Assembly (NCBI GenBank): GCA_024911895.1
Contig: GCA_024911895.1_3948.1
Length of the DNA stretch: 64,000 bases
Source of the DNA: a phage
Strand: one strand, 5' to 3'
The translations under genes and the position numbers were made by a program. The notes beneath the pieces were generated by a model. That model was not told the origin of the DNA. It searched no databases and saw nothing but the letters and a program-made list of their open reading frames with translations. This document shows, one piece after another, positions 2,002 to 47,490 of this stretch (the first letter of the stretch is position 1; every line of letters begins with the position of its first letter).

Positions 2002-2235
2002 CTAGTCTTTTTCAATGATAATTTCATATTGACCGTCAACACTGTCGAAATAGATTCCATCGTCATCTTCTGTCTTAAAGTAGCATTGAATATCATCACT
2101 GGCGGGATAGTCTTGCCTTGCTATCTGGCAAACCTGAATAGCGTTTTCTTTACTCCCTGTAAACTCTTCAAGCCCTTTAAAATCGCATGAATGACCATTA
2201 CAAATTGAGAGGATAAGATAAATGGTTGTAAGCAT
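2002..2235 (-). CDS. hypothetical small Cys-containing protein (77 aa) with hydrophobic N-terminus, possibly secreted
   Basis: N-terminus MLTTIYLILSICNG; 4 Cys; preceded by hairpin 2253..2269 and AAGAGG RBS. Confidence 0.45.
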   Translation of the reverse strand: MLTTIYLILSICNGHSCDFKGLEEFTGSKENAIQVCQIARQDYPASDDIQCYFKTEDDDGIYFDSVDGQYEIIIEKD

Positions 2236-2301
2236 GATTTAAGCCTCTTAAAAGCCCCTGTGAGGGGCTAATCAGTGTTTATAAGGTGATTGCATAGGTT
2301 T

Positions 2302-4984: not shown

Positions 4985-5497
4985 TTAGTCCTTAAAGATA
5001 TTCATCACTGAATCTTTTAATGCTTCCAAGCGTTCTAATACTTCAGATTCTGCGTCTGCGTTGTTCACTTCCTCTTTTAGCCTGTCATCTAAATCATCGC
5101 CGTCACTATAACACCAATCAAAAGCGTAACCAATATAAAAACTGTCTAAAATTGTTTGACCATTTGCATCGACAACTTTCGCGGCAAGGTTGTATTCTGA
5201 AGCCTCTAAATCTCTTTCTAGTTCTTTCTGTAAGCTGATGTAAGCCTCTCTTGATGGATTTTCCCGGCCTTGTTTTGCATAGTCACTTGAAAGCTGTTTA
5301 AGGCTGTAATGTAAAGGGATTGCATATTTAAATTCATTACGCTGACAGTTGGGGTTTTTAATAGTCACGCCGCCATGATGAGTGTCTGTAAACTCCCAAT
5401 TATCAAGATTATGGCTTGCTTCAAAGCAATTAACAGCTTCGTAAATGATGGAAAATTTTTCTTTTACAACTTCAAAGGTAGCTTCTACAGTTTTCAT
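4985..5497 (-). CDS. hypothetical acidic early protein (170 aa)
   Basis: ATG after family-B leader; D/E-rich. Confidence 0.55.
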   Translation of the reverse strand: MKTVEATFEVVKEKFSIIYEAVNCFEASHNLDNWEFTDTHHGGVTIKNPNCQRNEFKYAIPLHYSLKQLSSDYAKQGRENPSREAYISLQKELERDLEASEYNLAAKVVDANGQTILDSFYIGYAFDWCYSDGDDLDDRLKEEVNNADAESEVLERLEALKDSVMNIFKD

Positions 5498-5586
5498 TTT
5501 TGAATCTCCAGTTTAGGATTAATGTGGTAAAGCTCTTTATCTGGGGCTTAAGATATCAACTTTTAAGCCCCCTGTAAAGTACTTTA
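5498..5586 (-). repeat. family-B early cassette (hairpin GGGGCTTAA..TTAAGCCCC)
   Basis: close copy of 6314..6401; abuts the ATG of ORF 4985..5497. Confidence 0.7.
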
Positions 5587-5844
5587 TCAGATTAAATTGC
5601 CAGTTAATGATAAGTGCATTTTATAGCCTTTTTTGGTAAACACGTTCACTTTACCGAGTGATTTTACACCTTTAAAAAGATTGTTTGAACTGCGTTTTAA
5701 GGTTAGTTGTTTATCAGCCTTCACGCCCCATCTTACAGCAGATGGTTTTCCGTTGTCAACAACTTTCCCGCCTAACTTTTTCGCCATGATGCGAGCGTCA
5801 TCGCGAGTTTTTGCAGTAATTACAACGTTTTTGATAATAGCCAT
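5587..5844 (-). CDS. hypothetical basic early protein (85 aa)
   Basis: ATG after family-B leader; K/R-rich. Confidence 0.5.
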   Translation of the reverse strand: MAIIKNVVITAKTRDDARIMAKKLGGKVVDNGKPSAVRWGVKADKQLTLKRSSNNLFKGVKSLGKVNVFTKKGYKMHLSLTGNLI

Positions 5845-5932: not shown

Positions 5933-6313
5933 TCAGTTAATTTTGAAAATTGTCACATAACCATCACTACCGATTATTTGAGATACTCCAGCTTTTTCTA
6001 CATGATAGCCCATATTTTCAAGATGGTAAACAGCATCATCGTAACCATATGCGCCACCCTGATAACGTCTCTTATCGCATCTTATCAGGTTTTTACCACG
6101 TCCTGCAAGTGCATTCAGTACAGCTTTTTCACTTGATAGCGTACCATCTAACATGGTTGCCGTGTAATGGTTGATTTTATTCCCGTTAATATCATACTTA
6201 AAATTGAATGCGTGAACAACAATCAATTTGCCGTTAAATTTTTCATCAAGTGACTTCTCCAGTGCGTTGCGGAAGTTGTCTTTGTTGATGAATTTCGGTG
6301 CACGATAAGCCAT
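5933..6313 (-). CDS. hypothetical early protein (126 aa)
   Basis: ATG after family-A-type leader (TAAACTAGGAGATTCAAAA). Confidence 0.55.
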   Translation of the reverse strand: MAYRAPKFINKDNFRNALEKSLDEKFNGKLIVVHAFNFKYDINGNKINHYTATMLDGTLSSEKAVLNALAGRGKNLIRCDKRRYQGGAYGYDDAVYHLENMGYHVEKAGVSQIIGSDGYVTIFKIN

Positions 6314-6401
6314 TTTTGAATCTCCTAGTTTAAGGGTTAATTTAGTAAAGCTCTTTATCTGGGGCTTAAGATATCAACTTTTAAACCCCCTGTAAAGTAC
6401 T
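6314..6401 (-). repeat. family-B early cassette
   Basis: close copy of 5498..5586; abuts the ATG of ORF 5933..6313. Confidence 0.7.
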
Positions 6402-6623
6402 TTATTTGTCGTAGTAGTAAATCGCTGTCTGCCTTGTAAATTTCTTAGTGTTTCTTGTAAGGTAGCAATTAGAATTAATAGCCGTTTCTACATAGTTGCA
6501 ATAGTCGGCTTCTGATATTCTGGACCATACGCCACAGATTTGCATGTAAAAACGTTTTGCCTTTGTGTGAATGTTAGTTGTAACCATCAATTCGCGACTG
6601 TATATCATTATTTCGCGCTCCAT
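6402..6623 (-). CDS. hypothetical early protein (73 aa)
   Basis: ORF overlapping the end of 6608..6796 (translational coupling). Confidence 0.4.
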   Translation of the reverse strand: MEREIMIYSRELMVTTNIHTKAKRFYMQICGVWSRISEADYCNYVETAINSNCYLTRNTKKFTRQTAIYYYDK

Positions 6624-6796
6624 TTCTCAAAGAGTTCAGCAGGGAAACGTTCGCTATAACCTTTTAAGGAAAAAGTGTTATCTTCGTGGATAGCTTCCAC
6701 CTGATAAACCTTATAAGAGCGTATAGTTAGCATTTTGTAAGAGTATTCGTGCTTGATGTTAACCTCATCACCAACTTTAATCTTTCTTGATGCCAT
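6608..6796 (-). CDS. hypothetical early protein (62 aa), first gene downstream of the 6847..6875 promoter
   Basis: ATG after leader AAACTGGAGATTCAAAAA. Confidence 0.5.
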   Translation of the reverse strand: MASRKIKVGDEVNIKHEYSYKMLTIRSYKVYQVEAIHEDNTFSLKGYSERFPAELFEKWSAK

Positions 6797-6846
6797 TTTT
6801 TGAATCTCCAGTTTAGGAAGTGGGCTTGATTGCCCGTCTGATGCAA

Positions 6847-6875
6847 ATATTAGATAACTATACTCAAAGAGTCAA
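6847..6875 (-). promoter_or_regulatory. sigma70-like promoter (minus strand TTGACT-17bp-TAATAT) heading the leftward early cluster
   Basis: -35 at 6870..6875 and -10 at 6847..6852 read on the minus strand; 17-bp spacer; ~50 nt upstream of the ATG of ORF 6608..6796. Confidence 0.5.
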
Positions 6876-7050
6876 TAGGAATTTTAAAAATATTTTTTGC
6901 AAAAATTGTAATGAAACGGGTGCGCGCGACTACCACAAAACAGAACTACAATCAAGAATTATTTTTCAATCCGCTACAAATTTTTCTGTTGACTTTTATT
7001 TCCAGATGTGGTAGCCTTGTGAGAAATGGCGACATCCCCACCTGCACCCA

Positions 7051-7240
7051 CCTACCTGCACAATTCTAAAATGATTTTTCTTGCCAGACCTGATTTTTCT
7101 CTGCACGTTTTGAAAATGAAAAAGCTCTTTGGAGATTACCTGCACAGTTTGAAAATGAATTTTCTCTTTGGAGTTCAAAATTATCTCTACAGATTTCTCT
7201 ACAGAACTCTACCTGCACAATCCTGAAATGAAAAAGCCCT
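7051..7240. repeat. four direct repeats, core CTGCACa(a/g)tt(c/t)TGAAAATGA, at ~7051, 7099, 7136 and 7209 in a 500-bp intergenic region
   Basis: read directly; variable spacing 37-73 bp; no coding support (the plus ORF 7026..7226 is judged spurious). Confidence 0.6.
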
Positions 7241-7304
7241 CCTTACCTGAAAAATTTACCAGATAAGAAAGGCTTAGTCTATTGTGAATATACTACGAAG
7301 TTTC

Positions 7305-8090
7305 TTAGTTCTTTGCGTCTAAGAAGGTAAGCTCTGGTGAAGAGAAAACCGTCTCGATATCCTCATCAGTTCTTGCATAGATGTAAGCATCTGCATCACT
7401 GCCAAATGTTACTGCAATCCTGTGATTGCTCTTCGACAGGTGGGTAACTAGAGCGTTACTTAGAGACATCTTTTCAACCGGAGGGTTACTTTGATGTATC
7501 TTACCTTTTCTACGTCTGAAGAGGGTAACTGCATTATCTGTGAAAACTGCTACACCTGCAAAATATTCTGGTTCACAATAGTTCTTCCAACCTGAGCGTA
7601 ACTTATGGTACATTTCACCTTCATAGACATATAGGTAAACATCTACACTCTTCATCACCTGATTGATGATAACTGTGACGGCTTGAGGGTCCAGTCCACC
7701 GATACCTGCACCAATCATAGGTAACCCAACTTTCTTCAACTGATTCACTTCACAGTATCTGTTAAGCTGTTTCAAAGATGACTCTAAAGCACTGTATCGG
7801 GCATCTTTACCAGTCTTAAGCTGAGTGTAAAGGTTAGCTATACGGCCTTGTTTTAAACGTGCTACAGAGAAATTGCCTAGTAAATTCTCACAGGGCTTGT
7901 GGCCTATTCCACCTGCATACAGATAAACTTCTGTATCAGTCTCATATGCTTTTGGGTAAAGTTTAGAAATCTTGTCAGCGATACCTGCACCCATTAAGTT
8001 CATACAGTTGCAACCGTGACCGATGACGTCAAACTTACCTTTATCAAATGCTGCAAAGATATCGCCATTGATGATTTTTACAATACCCAT
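7305..8090 (-). CDS. macro-domain protein (ADP-ribose binding/processing; TARG1/OARD1-like N-terminal domain) with ~110-aa C-terminal extension
   Basis: motifs GHGCNCMNLMGAGIA and LPMIGAGIGGLD match, from memory, the TARG1-type macro signatures (CRMGAGIA ... PRIGCGLDRL). Confidence 0.55.
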   Translation of the reverse strand: MGIVKIINGDIFAAFDKGKFDVIGHGCNCMNLMGAGIADKISKLYPKAYETDTEVYLYAGGIGHKPCENLLGNFSVARLKQGRIANLYTQLKTGKDARYSALESSLKQLNRYCEVNQLKKVGLPMIGAGIGGLDPQAVTVIINQVMKSVDVYLYVYEGEMYHKLRSGWKNYCEPEYFAGVAVFTDNAVTLFRRRKGKIHQSNPPVEKMSLSNALVTHLSKSNHRIAVTFGSDADAYIYARTDEDIETVFSSPELTFLDAKN

Positions 8091-8517: not shown

Positions 8518-8818
8518 AGTTTACCTTCTCAGTTAGCTCATACAAGTCAACATGCTCAATGCTATCAATGTTGATACCAATCTTTTTGAAGCGTTCTATC
8601 ACTTCGTTGTCAGTCATCCATATCAGACACCAATGATTATGGATGGATTCCTCAAGAAGGTCAACACAATCTTTAAAAGTTTTTGTATCACTTCTCGTTC
8701 CAACTACTGCGATTGTTCCATATAGCCACTTACCATTGCCATAAGACACTTGTGCTACGCCAACTTCTTTATCTTTCTCGTAGTAAACGGCTACAAAGTC
8801 TCTTCCATTAATCTGCAT
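8492..8818 (-). CDS. hypothetical protein (108 aa)
   Basis: ORF in an operon-like array; no domain recognised. Confidence 0.45.
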   Translation of the reverse strand: MQINGRDFVAVYYEKDKEVGVAQVSYGNGKWLYGTIAVVGTRSDTKTFKDCVDLLEESIHNHWCLIWMTDNEVIERFKKIGINIDSIEHVDLYELTEKVNYESNTSQR

Positions 8819-8820
8819 AG

Positions 8821-9090
8821 TTACTTCCTCGTTTTAAGAACTGCTAAGATTTCTTTAGAATCTGGTAAGAACCATGTGTAGTGATTCTCTTTGATTTCTG
8901 GATGAGTGTCAACCTTTATTTTGCACTCTTTACCAACATGCTTAAGCTGTGCTGTGACACCTTGCATAAAGATATGACACATCACATTATCCATAATGGT
9001 TGGTATGAAGTCAATTCGCATATAAGTTTCTTTTGGTCGTGGTAGTAGTAAGTAACCTTCTACATAGAAAGTATCTTCGTTCTCTGTCAT
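8821..9090 (-). CDS. hypothetical protein (89 aa)
   Basis: ORF in an operon-like array. Confidence 0.45.
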   Translation of the reverse strand: MTENEDTFYVEGYLLLPRPKETYMRIDFIPTIMDNVMCHIFMQGVTAQLKHVGKECKIKVDTHPEIKENHYTWFLPDSKEILAVLKTRK

Positions 9091-9356
9091 TGCTGTTTGT
9101 TCCCTAATAAAATCATGTCAATAAGGTTATTAGCTTTTATAGTGCACTGGTAAAAACCATCACGATAAAACTCAAGGGCTGCTGCCACATCACTACCAGT
9201 ATTGCCTTTGACAGTGAATCTTGATTCTTCTTGAGTGTACTTGTCACTCTCACTTACTCGGGAGTTTTTGAATGTACTGTTCACTTTGTTCGTTGAACAC
9301 CCTGACATAATTATCAGTAACACAAACATTATAAAACTCTGGCTTAGTTTTTTCAT
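9087..9356 (-). CDS. lipoprotein (89-aa precursor); candidate o-spanin or superinfection-exclusion lipoprotein
   Basis: signal peptide MKKLSQSFIMFVLLIIMSGC with lipobox MSG-C; start lies inside the 3' end of 9250..9597 in another frame; AGAGG RBS. Confidence 0.45.
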   Translation of the reverse strand: MKKLSQSFIMFVLLIIMSGCSTNKVNSTFKNSRVSESDKYTQEESRFTVKGNTGSDVAAALEFYRDGFYQCTIKANNLIDMILLGNKQQ

Positions 9357-9597
9357 ATGTTAGTACCTCTTTTGTATGCTTATTCTTAGCAAGCACATCT
9401 TTCAAATCATTTTTGTAATTAGTGCTGAGTGTGGCTAAACCTTCCTGATAAGCATCTTTAGCAACACTTATCAGCTTCTCATTGTTTAACTCAGCTTCAG
9501 CAACTTGGTAGTCTCTATAAGAGTATCCTCCCCAGACACCTGCCCCAACTAAGAAAACAATTATGAAAGTAGCTTGGCAGAACTCTTTAAATGTCAT
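9250..9597 (-). CDS. type-II membrane protein with helical periplasmic domain; candidate i-spanin (115 aa)
   Basis: N-terminal TM ATFIIVFLVGAGVWGG; 107-nt out-of-frame overlap with the downstream lipoprotein gene. Confidence 0.4.
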   Translation of the reverse strand: MTFKEFCQATFIIVFLVGAGVWGGYSYRDYQVAEAELNNEKLISVAKDAYQEGLATLSTNYKNDLKDVLAKNKHTKEVLTYEKTKPEFYNVCVTDNYVRVFNEQSEQYIQKLPSK

Positions 9598-9606
9598 TTA
9601 ACAATC

Positions 9607-9638
9607 TCCTGAAATGAAAAAGGCTCCCGAAGGAGCCT
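9607..9638 (-). terminator. intrinsic terminator: 7-bp stem AGGCTCC/GGAGCCT, loop UUCG on the minus-strand RNA, then U-run
   Basis: plus strand AGGCTCC-CGAA-GGAGCCT at 9621..9638; T-run on the minus strand at 9607..9620. Confidence 0.6.
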
Positions 9639-9649
9639 GTATCTTAACC

Positions 9650-10129
9650 TTAACCGAGGACTTTAGCAAGGATATTTGCAGCCATCGAAGAAGCTTTTGC
9701 AGCAGCAACTACGCCAGCTTTGACAGTGCTATCCTTAATAGCAGATACCGTTGCAGCATCAGTAAAGAGATAAGTGATTGTTTTAGAACCACTCGTAAAG
9801 GAAAGCATAAGAGTAGTTTCCAGATTGAAAGAGCGATACGGAGCACCTTCTTTAACGATACCTTCAGCACCTAACTCTGAAGCCTTACCCATATCATAGA
9901 TAGTCATCAGGTTTTCTTTGTGTGCAGTCGTTGAACCAGCACCTTTTACGTGCTTTTTAACATTCAACAATGCACGATATTCACGAATGCTTCCATCAGC
10001 TTTTACATTAACAGCACGGAAAATTTTACCTTCAAAGTTGCCTTGAATCATTTTACGAACTACTTCAGATTTGTTTGCCGTATCGTCCAGTGCTACCGTA
10101 ATGATATTGTTCATAAGTTTTTCTCTCAA
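9650..10129 (-). CDS. hypothetical protein (159 aa)
   Basis: ORF; 4-nt ATGA overlap with the upstream gene. Confidence 0.5.
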   Translation of the reverse strand: MREKLMNNIITVALDDTANKSEVVRKMIQGNFEGKIFRAVNVKADGSIREYRALLNVKKHVKGAGSTTAHKENLMTIYDMGKASELGAEGIVKEGAPYRSFNLETTLMLSFTSGSKTITYLFTDAATVSAIKDSTVKAGVVAAAKASSMAANILAKVLG

Positions 10130-10821
10130 TGTTTAACTAACATGGTTTTAATGTGTGGAAGGATTCTGTTAACCTTCTGAACATTCTTCTCTGTATCTTC
10201 TATAAAGCATACTATATTAAAATAAGGAAGAATGCAAGACTGAATCATCCTCACTTTCAAACTTTCTGCACTTATAGAGTTAGTTCCAAAACCACGCATA
10301 AAAAGCATGTAGTCATGCTCTATGTTATGCCTTAAGAACATCTCAGTAGGTATTCTCTGAGATTCACCTCTCGCTGTCAAGAGTCCAATGGCAGCATGAT
10401 TAGCAATTGCATCAATAATACTAAAAACATATGTTGGTTTTGCTCTTACAGAGTCAAGAAGATTAGTGTATTGTGAGAATGACCCATCAGTCAATTCCGT
10501 TGAGCAATCTTCGTGATTAAAATTTGTAAGAACACCATCAATATCTGCTAAGATGAGGTTACCTTTTTCTACAAGGTCTTTATTGACTATGACTAAACTA
10601 TCACGACTTACACCTATAGCTTGTCCAGTTTCTTTATCCACAACGTTCACAATTGGTTCTGATGTGTGGAACTCTTCAAGTGAACATACAACTTCTCTTG
10701 CAGTGTCTTCAAAATCCCTGCACTGTTCTGGAGTCCATACACAGGAATCAAGACCTAACTCATGAGGATGCAAGTCATAAGCGTGGCACAGGACTTCATC
10801 AGACTTTCTTAATTTTTTCAT
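10126..10821 (-). CDS. HAD-superfamily phosphatase-like protein (231 aa)
   Basis: motif I LILADIDGVLT (DxDxV/T), motif II-like GLLTARG, acidic motif IEDTEKN. Confidence 0.4.
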   Translation of the reverse strand: MKKLRKSDEVLCHAYDLHPHELGLDSCVWTPEQCRDFEDTAREVVCSLEEFHTSEPIVNVVDKETGQAIGVSRDSLVIVNKDLVEKGNLILADIDGVLTNFNHEDCSTELTDGSFSQYTNLLDSVRAKPTYVFSIIDAIANHAAIGLLTARGESQRIPTEMFLRHNIEHDYMLFMRGFGTNSISAESLKVRMIQSCILPYFNIVCFIEDTEKNVQKVNRILPHIKTMLVKH

Positions 10822-11347
10822 GATTTACCTTAGAAATGTTTGTTGCAAATTCACATTGAGCAATAACTTTCATATTGTTATAGACATCTTGAGAGTATTT
10901 CTTAGCTTTAGGGATTTTGTACGAATACCCAGCATTATATGATGCTAAAACTTTTTGTAAAGTCTTCTTTGACTTTGGCTGACCATGTACCTTTGTCCAA
11001 AACTCAAGCTCTTTATGTGTTTCTTTTGCGGCATAGTCAAAGTCTTTTAAGAGTTTCTTTTTAGCAACATTAGGACTAATTTTGTTACGCTTTACAACAG
11101 TCTTCAAGTGATTCTGGAAGATACCGTAGTCATGGGTCTTTTTATTTTCTACCTTCAGACCTAACTCTGACTCTTGTAAGGCTATAGCTGCTAGAGTGAT
11201 ACCCCAACCTTTACCCATGTTATTCTCACCATACTGGTAAGCTTTTAACATGTTAACTTTTTGGCTAATTGATAGCTCTGGGCAGTCAACTGCATAAGAT
11301 AAGTGTGCTGTAAACATTAAGCACAAGCCTAGAATCAATTTCTTCAT
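10799..11347 (-). CDS. secreted lytic transglycosylase (SLT domain) protein, possible endolysin or cell-wall remodelling enzyme
   Basis: signal peptide MKKLILGLCLMFTAHLSYA; SLT family-1 motifs in order: LQESELG (E-S), DYGIFQ, SYNAGYS. Confidence 0.5.
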   Translation of the reverse strand: MKKLILGLCLMFTAHLSYAVDCPELSISQKVNMLKAYQYGENNMGKGWGITLAAIALQESELGLKVENKKTHDYGIFQNHLKTVVKRNKISPNVAKKKLLKDFDYAAKETHKELEFWTKVHGQPKSKKTLQKVLASYNAGYSYKIPKAKKYSQDVYNNMKVIAQCEFATNISKVNHEKIKKV

Positions 11348-47082: not shown

Positions 47083-47125
47083 AACAAAAAGGCTCCTTTT
47101 TACGGGAGCCTTAAAATTTTATTTT
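47083..47125. terminator. hairpin (AAGGCTCC..GGAGCCTT) between the convergent blocks; probable bidirectional terminator
   Basis: stem 47089..47096 / 47105..47112, flanked by A-run and T-run. Confidence 0.5.
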
Positions 47126-47490
47126 TCAGTATTCTTTGTGTTCTTTTCAGTAATAGCTTGGAGGGCTGATACTGATTGAGCCAGATTATTTACACTGTCA
47201 GAGAATTTATCAAGAGTTTTGGTAAGTTTTGCGTTTTCACCCTTAACATTCTCTAACTGAACTTTCTGGTTCTCCATCCCTAGTTGAATCAATCTCATGT
47301 CAGACTGTAAATCACGAATAGCTGAATAATTACTTTTGGAATAATTATCTAGCTGCTGTAACTTTGTTGTGATAGACACTTCTTGTTTACCATCCGAAAC
47401 TTGCATGGTGGTATACATCCCAATAACACTAAAAATACCAACTACAATTGCACCAATATTATTTTTAAAAGCTTCCTCTAGCCACTTCAT
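47119..47490 (-). CDS. membrane-anchored coiled-coil protein (123 aa); lysis or fiber-assembly accessory candidate
   Basis: N-terminal TM IGAIVVGIFSVIGMY then heptad-rich region; GGGGGAGAAA RBS. Confidence 0.45.
   Translation of the reverse strand: MKWLEEAFKNNIGAIVVGIFSVIGMYTTMQVSDGKQEVSITTKLQQLDNYSKSNYSAIRDLQSDMRLIQLGMENQKVQLENVKGENAKLTKTLDKFSDSVNNLAQSVSALQAITEKNTKNTEK

Follow-up and report, generated by a model that had tools for sequence, protein, structure and literature searches.

Spanins carry out the last step of lysis by phages of Gram-negative hosts, and the lambda and T4 work behind the present picture of their mechanism was summarised by Kongari et al. in a curated spanin census (BMC Bioinformatics 19:326, 2018; PMC6139136). 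In lambda the pair consists of Rz, a type II inner-membrane protein, and Rz1, an outer-membrane lipoprotein read in a different frame of the same DNA, the genes being fully embedded; Rz1 is short and unstructured and carries a penta-proline (PMC6139136). The T4 proteins PseT.3 and PseT.2 (117 and 99 aa) come from separated genes, distant from those for holin and endolysin and close to pseT, the polynucleotide kinase (PNK) gene, in the order alc, pseT.3, pseT.2, pseT.1, pseT in the direction of transcription. In the experimentally validated o-spanin family of T4 a C-terminal helix is predicted, and a proline-rich region is lacking (PMC6139136). Two-component spanins generally carry a cysteine near the heterotypic interface that is available for homotypic disulfides (PMC6139136). 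The same census covers the pair of Felix01 (NC_005282), p014 and p015 at 5330-5678 and 5571-5841, which is listed as 'ovl' OIS/OOS with 115 and 89 aa and a 107-nt overlap. Its 'JH2' i-spanin family has 15 members, phiEco32-like podophages included, and its 'JH2' o-spanin family 11 (PMC6139136). The published tables give 66% helix and no predicted coiled coil for the Felix01 i-spanin (Kongari et al. 2018). Complementation, deletion or localisation tests of the Felix O1/JH2 spanin family were not found in the literature searched.

The window, by which we mean the whole 64,000-nt stretch of phage DNA that was analysed, carries a pair that is very probably the overlapped two-component spanin of a Felix O1-like myophage (Felixounavirus), belonging to the JH2 families. 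It has the 115/89-aa lengths of Felix01 p014/p015, the 107-nt overlap, the ribosome-binding motifs and the mature CST start, and differs by a few substitutions, for example a lipobox of IMSG in the window versus TMSG in Felix01. Around the pair, a 4-kb stretch matches about 200 Felix O1-like myophages (hosts E. coli, Salmonella and Shigella) at 95-97% identity, and the window is broadly collinear with the genome of Salmonella phage BPS17W1, in which the pair is annotated as i-spanin/o-spanin; the GenBank records of JLBYU32 and Pr103Blw carry the same annotation. Few residue differences are seen by inspection between the window i-spanin and Felix01 p014 (~97% identity); several relatives, BPS17W1 among them, have a 100% identical i-spanin, and that of Moogle is 77% identical. 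The o-spanin is, by tblastn, 94% identical to those of FelixO1 and wV8, against 82% for Moogle. The initial annotation had read the locus as a spanin pair from its overlapped architecture and had pointed to curated spanin families as a check. That reading equals the published curated annotation of Felix O1-like phages as well as that of GenBank relatives, with p014/p015 and the JH2 families agreeing in lengths and overlap, and the pair is thus already known. Positions of the features are collected in Table 1.

Table 1. Features of the spanin locus and of neighbouring or related genes, in window coordinates.
Feature	Position	Strand	Basis or remark
i-spanin gene, 115 aa	9250..9597	minus	ORF, phrog_1152, likeness to Felix01 p014, hydropathy
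o-spanin gene, 89-aa precursor, 70 aa mature	9087..9356	minus	ORF, phrog_4180, likeness to Felix01 p015
107-nt dual-coding overlap	9250..9356	minus	ORF coordinates; flattened codon-position variability
Shine-Dalgarno GAGGT and spacer for the o-spanin start	9357..9375	minus	sequence AAAGAGGTACTAACATATG; inside the i-spanin coding sequence
Upstream leader	9598..9638	minus	GC hairpin and T-run, then the i-spanin AGGAG; terminator scan, RNA fold
Terminator-like hairpin	9638..9621	minus	AGGCTCC-TTCG-GGAGCCT-TTTTT
159-aa ORF, TTG start	9650..10129	minus	phrog_2267, function unlabelled
Gene for a 182-aa protein (SLT-like)	10799..11347	minus	signal peptide MKKLILGLCLMFTAHLSYA; phrog_600
89-aa ORF after the o-spanin gene	8821..9090	minus	phrog_4391, function unlabelled
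Macro-domain 'phosphatase' gene	7305..8090	minus	
Short ORFs only	6100..7300		
Putative holin gene	47122..47490	minus	98% identical to BPS17W1 'holin'

Translation of the i-spanin ORF begins MTFKEFCQATFIIVFLVGAGVWGG (ORF listing and minus-strand read, 8700..10000), with an AGGAG Shine-Dalgarno 8 nt ahead of the ATG. Residues 6-24, FCQATFIIVFLVGAGVWGG, make up the sole strongly hydrophobic stretch (Kyte-Doolittle 19-residue maximum 1.75), and the protein is, as predicted from its sequence, a type II inner-membrane protein with a single N-terminal transmembrane domain (TMD) and an 88-aa periplasmic domain that is expected to be mostly helical. An AF2 model of low confidence likewise shows a TM helix and, after it, three or four helices in the periplasmic part, with helices predicted at 39-55, 65-79 and 85-111. 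The best-conserved part of the protein is the motif EKTKPxFYNvCxTDxYxxvFNE, which includes Cys92; in a cross-lineage alignment its core, EK-x-(K/Q/E/N)-(P/T)-x-(F/Y)-x-N-x-C-x-(T/S)-x-x-Y-x-x-x-(F/Y)-N, is invariant or near-invariant. Among the PHROGs, phrog_1152 ('Rz-like spanin') matches the i-spanin with E = 8.9e-42.

The o-spanin precursor starts with MKKLSQSFIMFVLLIIMSG, after which the mature protein begins CST; the lipobox is IMSG followed by Cys20, with Ser at +2, and the signal peptide has two Lys in its n-region and a hydrophobic core of KD 1.75. GAGGT stands 9 nt ahead of the ATG. Ser at +2 implies a predicted sorting to the outer membrane, and Ser or Thr, never Asp, occupies this position in all 8 lineages compared. 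After the lipid-bearing Cys there is a polar, proline-free linker and then a conserved C-terminal segment, LEFYRDGFYQCTIKANNLIDMIL, with Cys71. Across lineages the alignment gives this block as G-x(6-8)-(L/A)-(E/D)-(F/W/Y/L)-(Y/W)-x-x-x-(Y/F)-x-x-C-(A/T)-x-x-x-N-x-L-(I/V/L)-(D/E), in which the Cys is Cys71. The best PHROG match is phrog_4180 ('unknown function', E = 2.6e-50), and phrog_456, 'Rz-like spanin', matches weakly (E = 5.5e-5). In the AF2 model a signal helix is followed by disorder at residues 20-53 and one long helix at 54-87, the latter being the best-supported part (pLDDT 66-73). The o-spanin stop overlaps the start of the next gene as ATGA (9087..9090, minus strand). The initial annotation had called a TM protein with a helical periplasmic domain and, beginning within the last 107 nt of its gene in another frame, a lipoprotein with a signal peptide, the lipobox MSG-C and a mature part lacking proline, all of which was borne out on the minus strand by the ORF coordinates, the hydropathy and helices of the first protein, the n-region, core and Cys20 of the second, and a count of 0 Pro in its 70 mature residues.

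Mean pLDDT is 56 and 58 for the two spanins. This low confidence is attributed to shallow alignments: protein searches returned almost only close relatives (24 and 15 clusters, 5 representatives), probably because overlapped small genes are under-called in protein collections. Searches for solved structures related by sequence to either spanin found none.

Set beside lambda, the window pair likewise combines a type II inner-membrane protein with an outer-membrane lipoprotein, the two being read from the same DNA in different frames, together with periplasmic cysteines available for homotypic disulfides. However, the genes are overlapped rather than fully embedded, no sequence similarity to Rz/Rz1 is detectable, and the window o-spanin, with its 70 aa, predicted C-terminal helix and lack of proline, falls outside the proline-rich Rz1 type. 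Likeness to T4 lies in the protein sizes, in the location near a PNK gene and far from holin and endolysin, and in an o-spanin with a predicted C-terminal helix but no proline-rich region. The T4 genes, in contrast, are separated, and the T4 proteins have no Cys in the i-spanin and two in the o-spanin, whereas the window has one in each. BLASTP against PseT.3/PseT.2 gave no homology beyond the signal peptide (E = 17 for the i-spanin; E = 0.03 for the o-spanin, signal peptide only). With no detectable homology, one o-spanin Cys instead of two, and overlapped genes, the pair stands apart from the T4 family. Cys92 of the i-spanin and Cys71 of the o-spanin are invariant across lineages, and this single periplasmic Cys per subunit fits the published spanin Cys rule.

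The pair is widely distributed. Matches by tblastn were obtained in 357 phage records for the o-spanin and 406 for the i-spanin, and a script applied to the fetched loci, which looked for a lipobox ORF whose start falls within the 3' end of another ORF encoding an N-terminal TMD, found the overlapped pair in Felix O1, Moogle, Sf16, mistaenkt, Erwinia phage Fifi318, Pectobacterium phage Arno18, 'Listeria' phage LPML1, Kuravirus Paul, Proteus siphophage Isfahan and Klebsiella phage phi_270. Its range takes in Felixounavirus, Mooglevirus, Suspvirus, Kolesnikvirus, Arno18, LPML1, Kuravirus Paul, Gorganvirus Isfahan and phi_270; the TMD protein and the lipoprotein co-occur in eight phage lineages, the overlap is 107-164 nt long among relatives, and the pair is kept in lineages with only ~30% amino-acid identity. 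The phiEco32/Kuravirus o-spanins, which were kept separate in the 2018 grouping, are linked here to the Felix O1 o-spanin family, the link being a weak one (tblastn E ~4e-3 plus the shared C-terminal motif). A minor addition to what was known is that, as judged by alignment, o-spanins of the phiEco32/Kuravirus, Kolesnikvirus, Gorganvirus and phi_270 types share the C-terminal Cys motif of Felix O1.

Two host labels among the relatives are odd. LPML1 (OK283618.1) is labelled a Listeria phage and belongs to the Ounavirinae, with a spanin pair of Gram-negative lipobox type; its host label is probably wrong, since such a pair fits a Gram-positive host poorly. A 98% identical o-spanin is found in 'Campylobacter phage A132' (MG065664), the label of which is similarly odd.

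The surroundings of the pair differ among these phages. In Isfahan the pair comes directly after the genes for a Phage_holin_8 protein (E = 1e-13), another small membrane protein and an endolysin with a CHAP domain, and in the siphophage phi_270 a GH108+PG_binding_3 endolysin and small membrane proteins precede it. Homologues of both proteins therefore hold the canonical last positions of a lysis cassette. The window pair lies outside any lysis cassette, among genes of early or nucleotide-metabolism type (rIIB, PNK, macro-domain phosphatase), the order in the direction of transcription being rIIB, the SLT-like gene, PNK, the 159-aa ORF, i-spanin and o-spanin. The putative holin is encoded far from here and combines one N-terminal TMD with a long C-terminal domain that is polar and helix-prone, and the BPS17W1 'lysin' (endolysin) has no match within the 64-kb window. 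With the holin gene at this distance and the endolysin gene outside the window, the lysis genes are dispersed over tens of kilobases. Genome announcements of Felix O1-like phages likewise describe endolysin, i-spanin, o-spanin and putative holin as scattered rather than in a cassette.

That both frames of the overlap are in use can be read from the pattern of substitutions. The o-spanin frame is +1 relative to the i-spanin frame, and the last 35 i-spanin codons, with the conserved motif and Cys92, encode in +1 the o-spanin signal peptide, lipobox and first linker residues. For the 511-nt unit of eight Ounavirinae loci, which are 79-97% identical, the number of variable columns was tallied at each codon position. 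In the i-spanin-only segment, read in the i-spanin frame, variable sites at positions 1/2/3 number 18/13/49 (~80 sites each), and in the o-spanin-only segment, read in its own frame, 13/9/43 (~55 sites each; 54/54/55), third-position excesses with p = 1.5e-10 and 1.2e-12 respectively. Within the overlap the counts flatten to 8/6/11 in the i-spanin frame and 6/11/8 in the o-spanin frame (~36 sites each). Third-position variability thus drops across the eight loci from 49/80 to 11/36 for the i-spanin (Fisher p = 0.003) and from 43/55 to 8/35 for the o-spanin (Fisher p = 3e-7). Both overlapping frames are under purifying selection at once; the collapse of third-position variability in the overlap indicates dual coding and rules out a chance ORF. 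A further minor addition is that the most conserved motif of the i-spanin is the very part overprinted by the o-spanin signal peptide, and a mutation-tolerant signal peptide laid over the most constrained i-spanin motif would make an instructive case of how constraint is partitioned in overprinted genes.

These statistics bear directly on the alternative that only the 115-aa gene is real, the 89-aa frame being a chance ORF or its true product being a 73-aa form that starts at Met17 and has no signal peptide. Such a view can draw on the databases, where many entries are 73, 72 or 68 aa long, the Pr103Blw record has a 222-nt CDS and some records annotate the i-spanin alone. Judged by their sequence, the 73-aa and 222-nt forms begin at Met17, and the full 270-nt o-spanin frame is present in the Pr103Blw DNA. 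However, the non-overlapping 163 nt show the strong o-frame periodicity just given (13/9/43, p = 1e-12), and the full-length start, n- and h-region, lipobox and GAGGT are conserved down to ~30% identity. Gene callers are biased against overlapping genes (Kongari et al. 2018, PMC6139136), a bias that would explain the short calls. On the codon-position statistics and the conservation of the full signal peptide the chance ORF and the 73-aa form were both rejected, and we regard it as extremely unlikely that either is correct. A different objection, that the lipoprotein could be an exclusion protein that happens to overlap, had been raised in the initial annotation on account of the missing prolines; its function would be superinfection exclusion or receptor masking of the Llp/Cor type, and the overlap with an unrelated membrane gene would be incidental. 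Indeed T5 Llp and the lambdoid Cor are, like the window o-spanin, small phage-encoded outer-membrane lipoproteins, the proline-free mature protein has no match to lambda Rz1-type o-spanins, its best PHROG is of unlabelled function, and the genes lie in an early-looking region apart from holin and endolysin. Llp and Cor, in contrast, have no homology to the window o-spanin, are not paired with an overlapping type II protein and do not follow endolysins. The lipoprotein is always overlapped with the same TMD-protein homologue, in eight lineages with different receptors and morphotypes, and two siphophages have the pair immediately behind the endolysin gene, Isfahan with a Pfam-supported holin ahead of it as well. 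Pfam, NCBIfam and PADLOC searches gave no meaningful match for either spanin, to an exclusion or defence family or otherwise, the NCBIfam matches being signal-peptide-level noise far below cut-offs, and the conserved Cys pattern agrees with the spanin rule. As for the prolines, the mature o-spanin is free of them in the Felix O1, Moogle and Susp group, and its homologues in other lineages contain 1-4; bar one in the Erwinia and Pectobacterium block, these all fall in the weakly conserved linker behind the lipid anchor. Since the prolines of relatives sit in this variable linker, their absence is a lineage-specific trait of a variable spacer and not evidence against spanin function, and the T4 family, in which a proline-rich region is likewise lacking, points the same way. 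The exclusion lipoprotein was rejected on its co-occurrence with the partner gene and on the lysis-cassette context of relatives, and we consider it a very improbable reading of this gene.

It also should be considered that the two proteins might form an envelope-spanning complex without a lytic role, one that, for example, controls lysis timing or remodels the envelope in concert with the neighbouring rII genes and secreted SLT-like protein. The closeness to rIIA/rIIB and to that protein would suit such a function, as would the distance from holin and endolysin and the lack of a predicted coiled coil. The T4 spanins, however, are likewise remote from t and e, beside pseT, and yet are proven spanins; homologues of the window pair occupy canonical lysis cassettes, and positive support for a non-lytic role is absent. 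We therefore give this explanation next to no credence and retain the overlapped two-component spanin.

By analogy with lambda Rz/Rz1 and T4 PseT.3/PseT.2, the spanin pair would work as follows. The i-spanin would be anchored in the inner membrane, and the o-spanin, lipidated at Cys20, would be sorted by the Lol system to the inner leaflet of the outer membrane. The C-terminal regions of the two proteins, presumably the EKTKP...C92...FNE segment of the i-spanin and the o-spanin helix around C71, would bind to each other, so that a complex reaches across the periplasm through the meshes of the peptidoglycan, and homotypic disulfides at the conserved Cys92 and Cys71 may stabilise it. As a rough length estimate, an 88-residue, mostly helical i-spanin domain, a flexible 34-residue linker and a 34-residue o-spanin helix could bridge a periplasm of some 20-25 nm. 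Destruction of the murein by holin and endolysin would then free the complexes, which would disrupt the outer membrane, fusion with the inner membrane being the probable route, and so complete lysis. It is thus predicted that Felix O1-like phages break the host outer membrane at the end of infection with this pair. We also entertain, as a rather unlikely idea, that o-spanins of the Felix O1/phiEco32 type form a mechanistically distinct class, in which a proline-rich fusion motif is lacking and a Cys-bearing amphipathic C-terminal helix (LEFYRDxxYxCxIxxNxLID) docks on the i-spanin EKTKPxFxNxC...FNE as a disulfide-stabilised helical bundle; if so, the step of outer-membrane disruption would work differently from that of lambda Rz1. 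Felix O1-like phages are widely used for typing and biocontrol of Salmonella and E. coli, and, with the pair predicted to serve the last lysis step, its correct annotation therefore matters for engineering and for studies of lysis timing, the more so as automatic gene callers often shorten the o-spanin or drop it.

Between the 159-aa ORF and the i-spanin gene, ~10 nt before the i-spanin Shine-Dalgarno, there is a terminator-like hairpin with a 7-bp GC-rich stem, a UUCG loop and a T-run. A fold of the whole 71-nt leader with this hairpin was not significant against shuffles (z = -0.97), and a sigma-70 promoter scan near the spanin genes found none above shuffle expectation. Kuravirus Paul has an annotated terminator at the equivalent place, just before the i-spanin ribosome-binding site (2231..2252 of fetched locus L003). 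Because a terminator-like hairpin precedes the i-spanin gene, the spanins may be expressed by read-through or from an unrecognised promoter.

Several neighbours deserve mention. The 159-aa ORF, for which relatives annotate a 154-aa version with an ATG start (465 nt), always lies between PNK and i-spanin in the Ounavirinae and gave no Pfam or NCBIfam match. Between the rIIB and PNK genes, the 182-aa protein with a signal peptide has a weak SLT lytic-transglycosylase match (Pfam E = 1.2e-3, below cut-off), its homologue in one relative is annotated as an SLT domain protein, and the 3' end of its gene overlaps the PNK start by 23 nt; its product could provide, close to the spanins, a second protein that is secreted and acts on murein. 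ARAGORN found no tRNA genes in the 64-kb window, and any tRNA genes therefore lie elsewhere in the phage genome. The macro-domain gene, ~1 kb downstream of the pair in the window, comes immediately after the pair in Kuravirus Paul (L003 2761..3201) and in Erwinia phage Fifi318 (L004 2784..3566), and the window and Paul macro-domain proteins are homologous (BLASTP E = 2e-8, 25% identity), which suggests a module of spanins and macro-domain protein common to myophage and podophage lineages.
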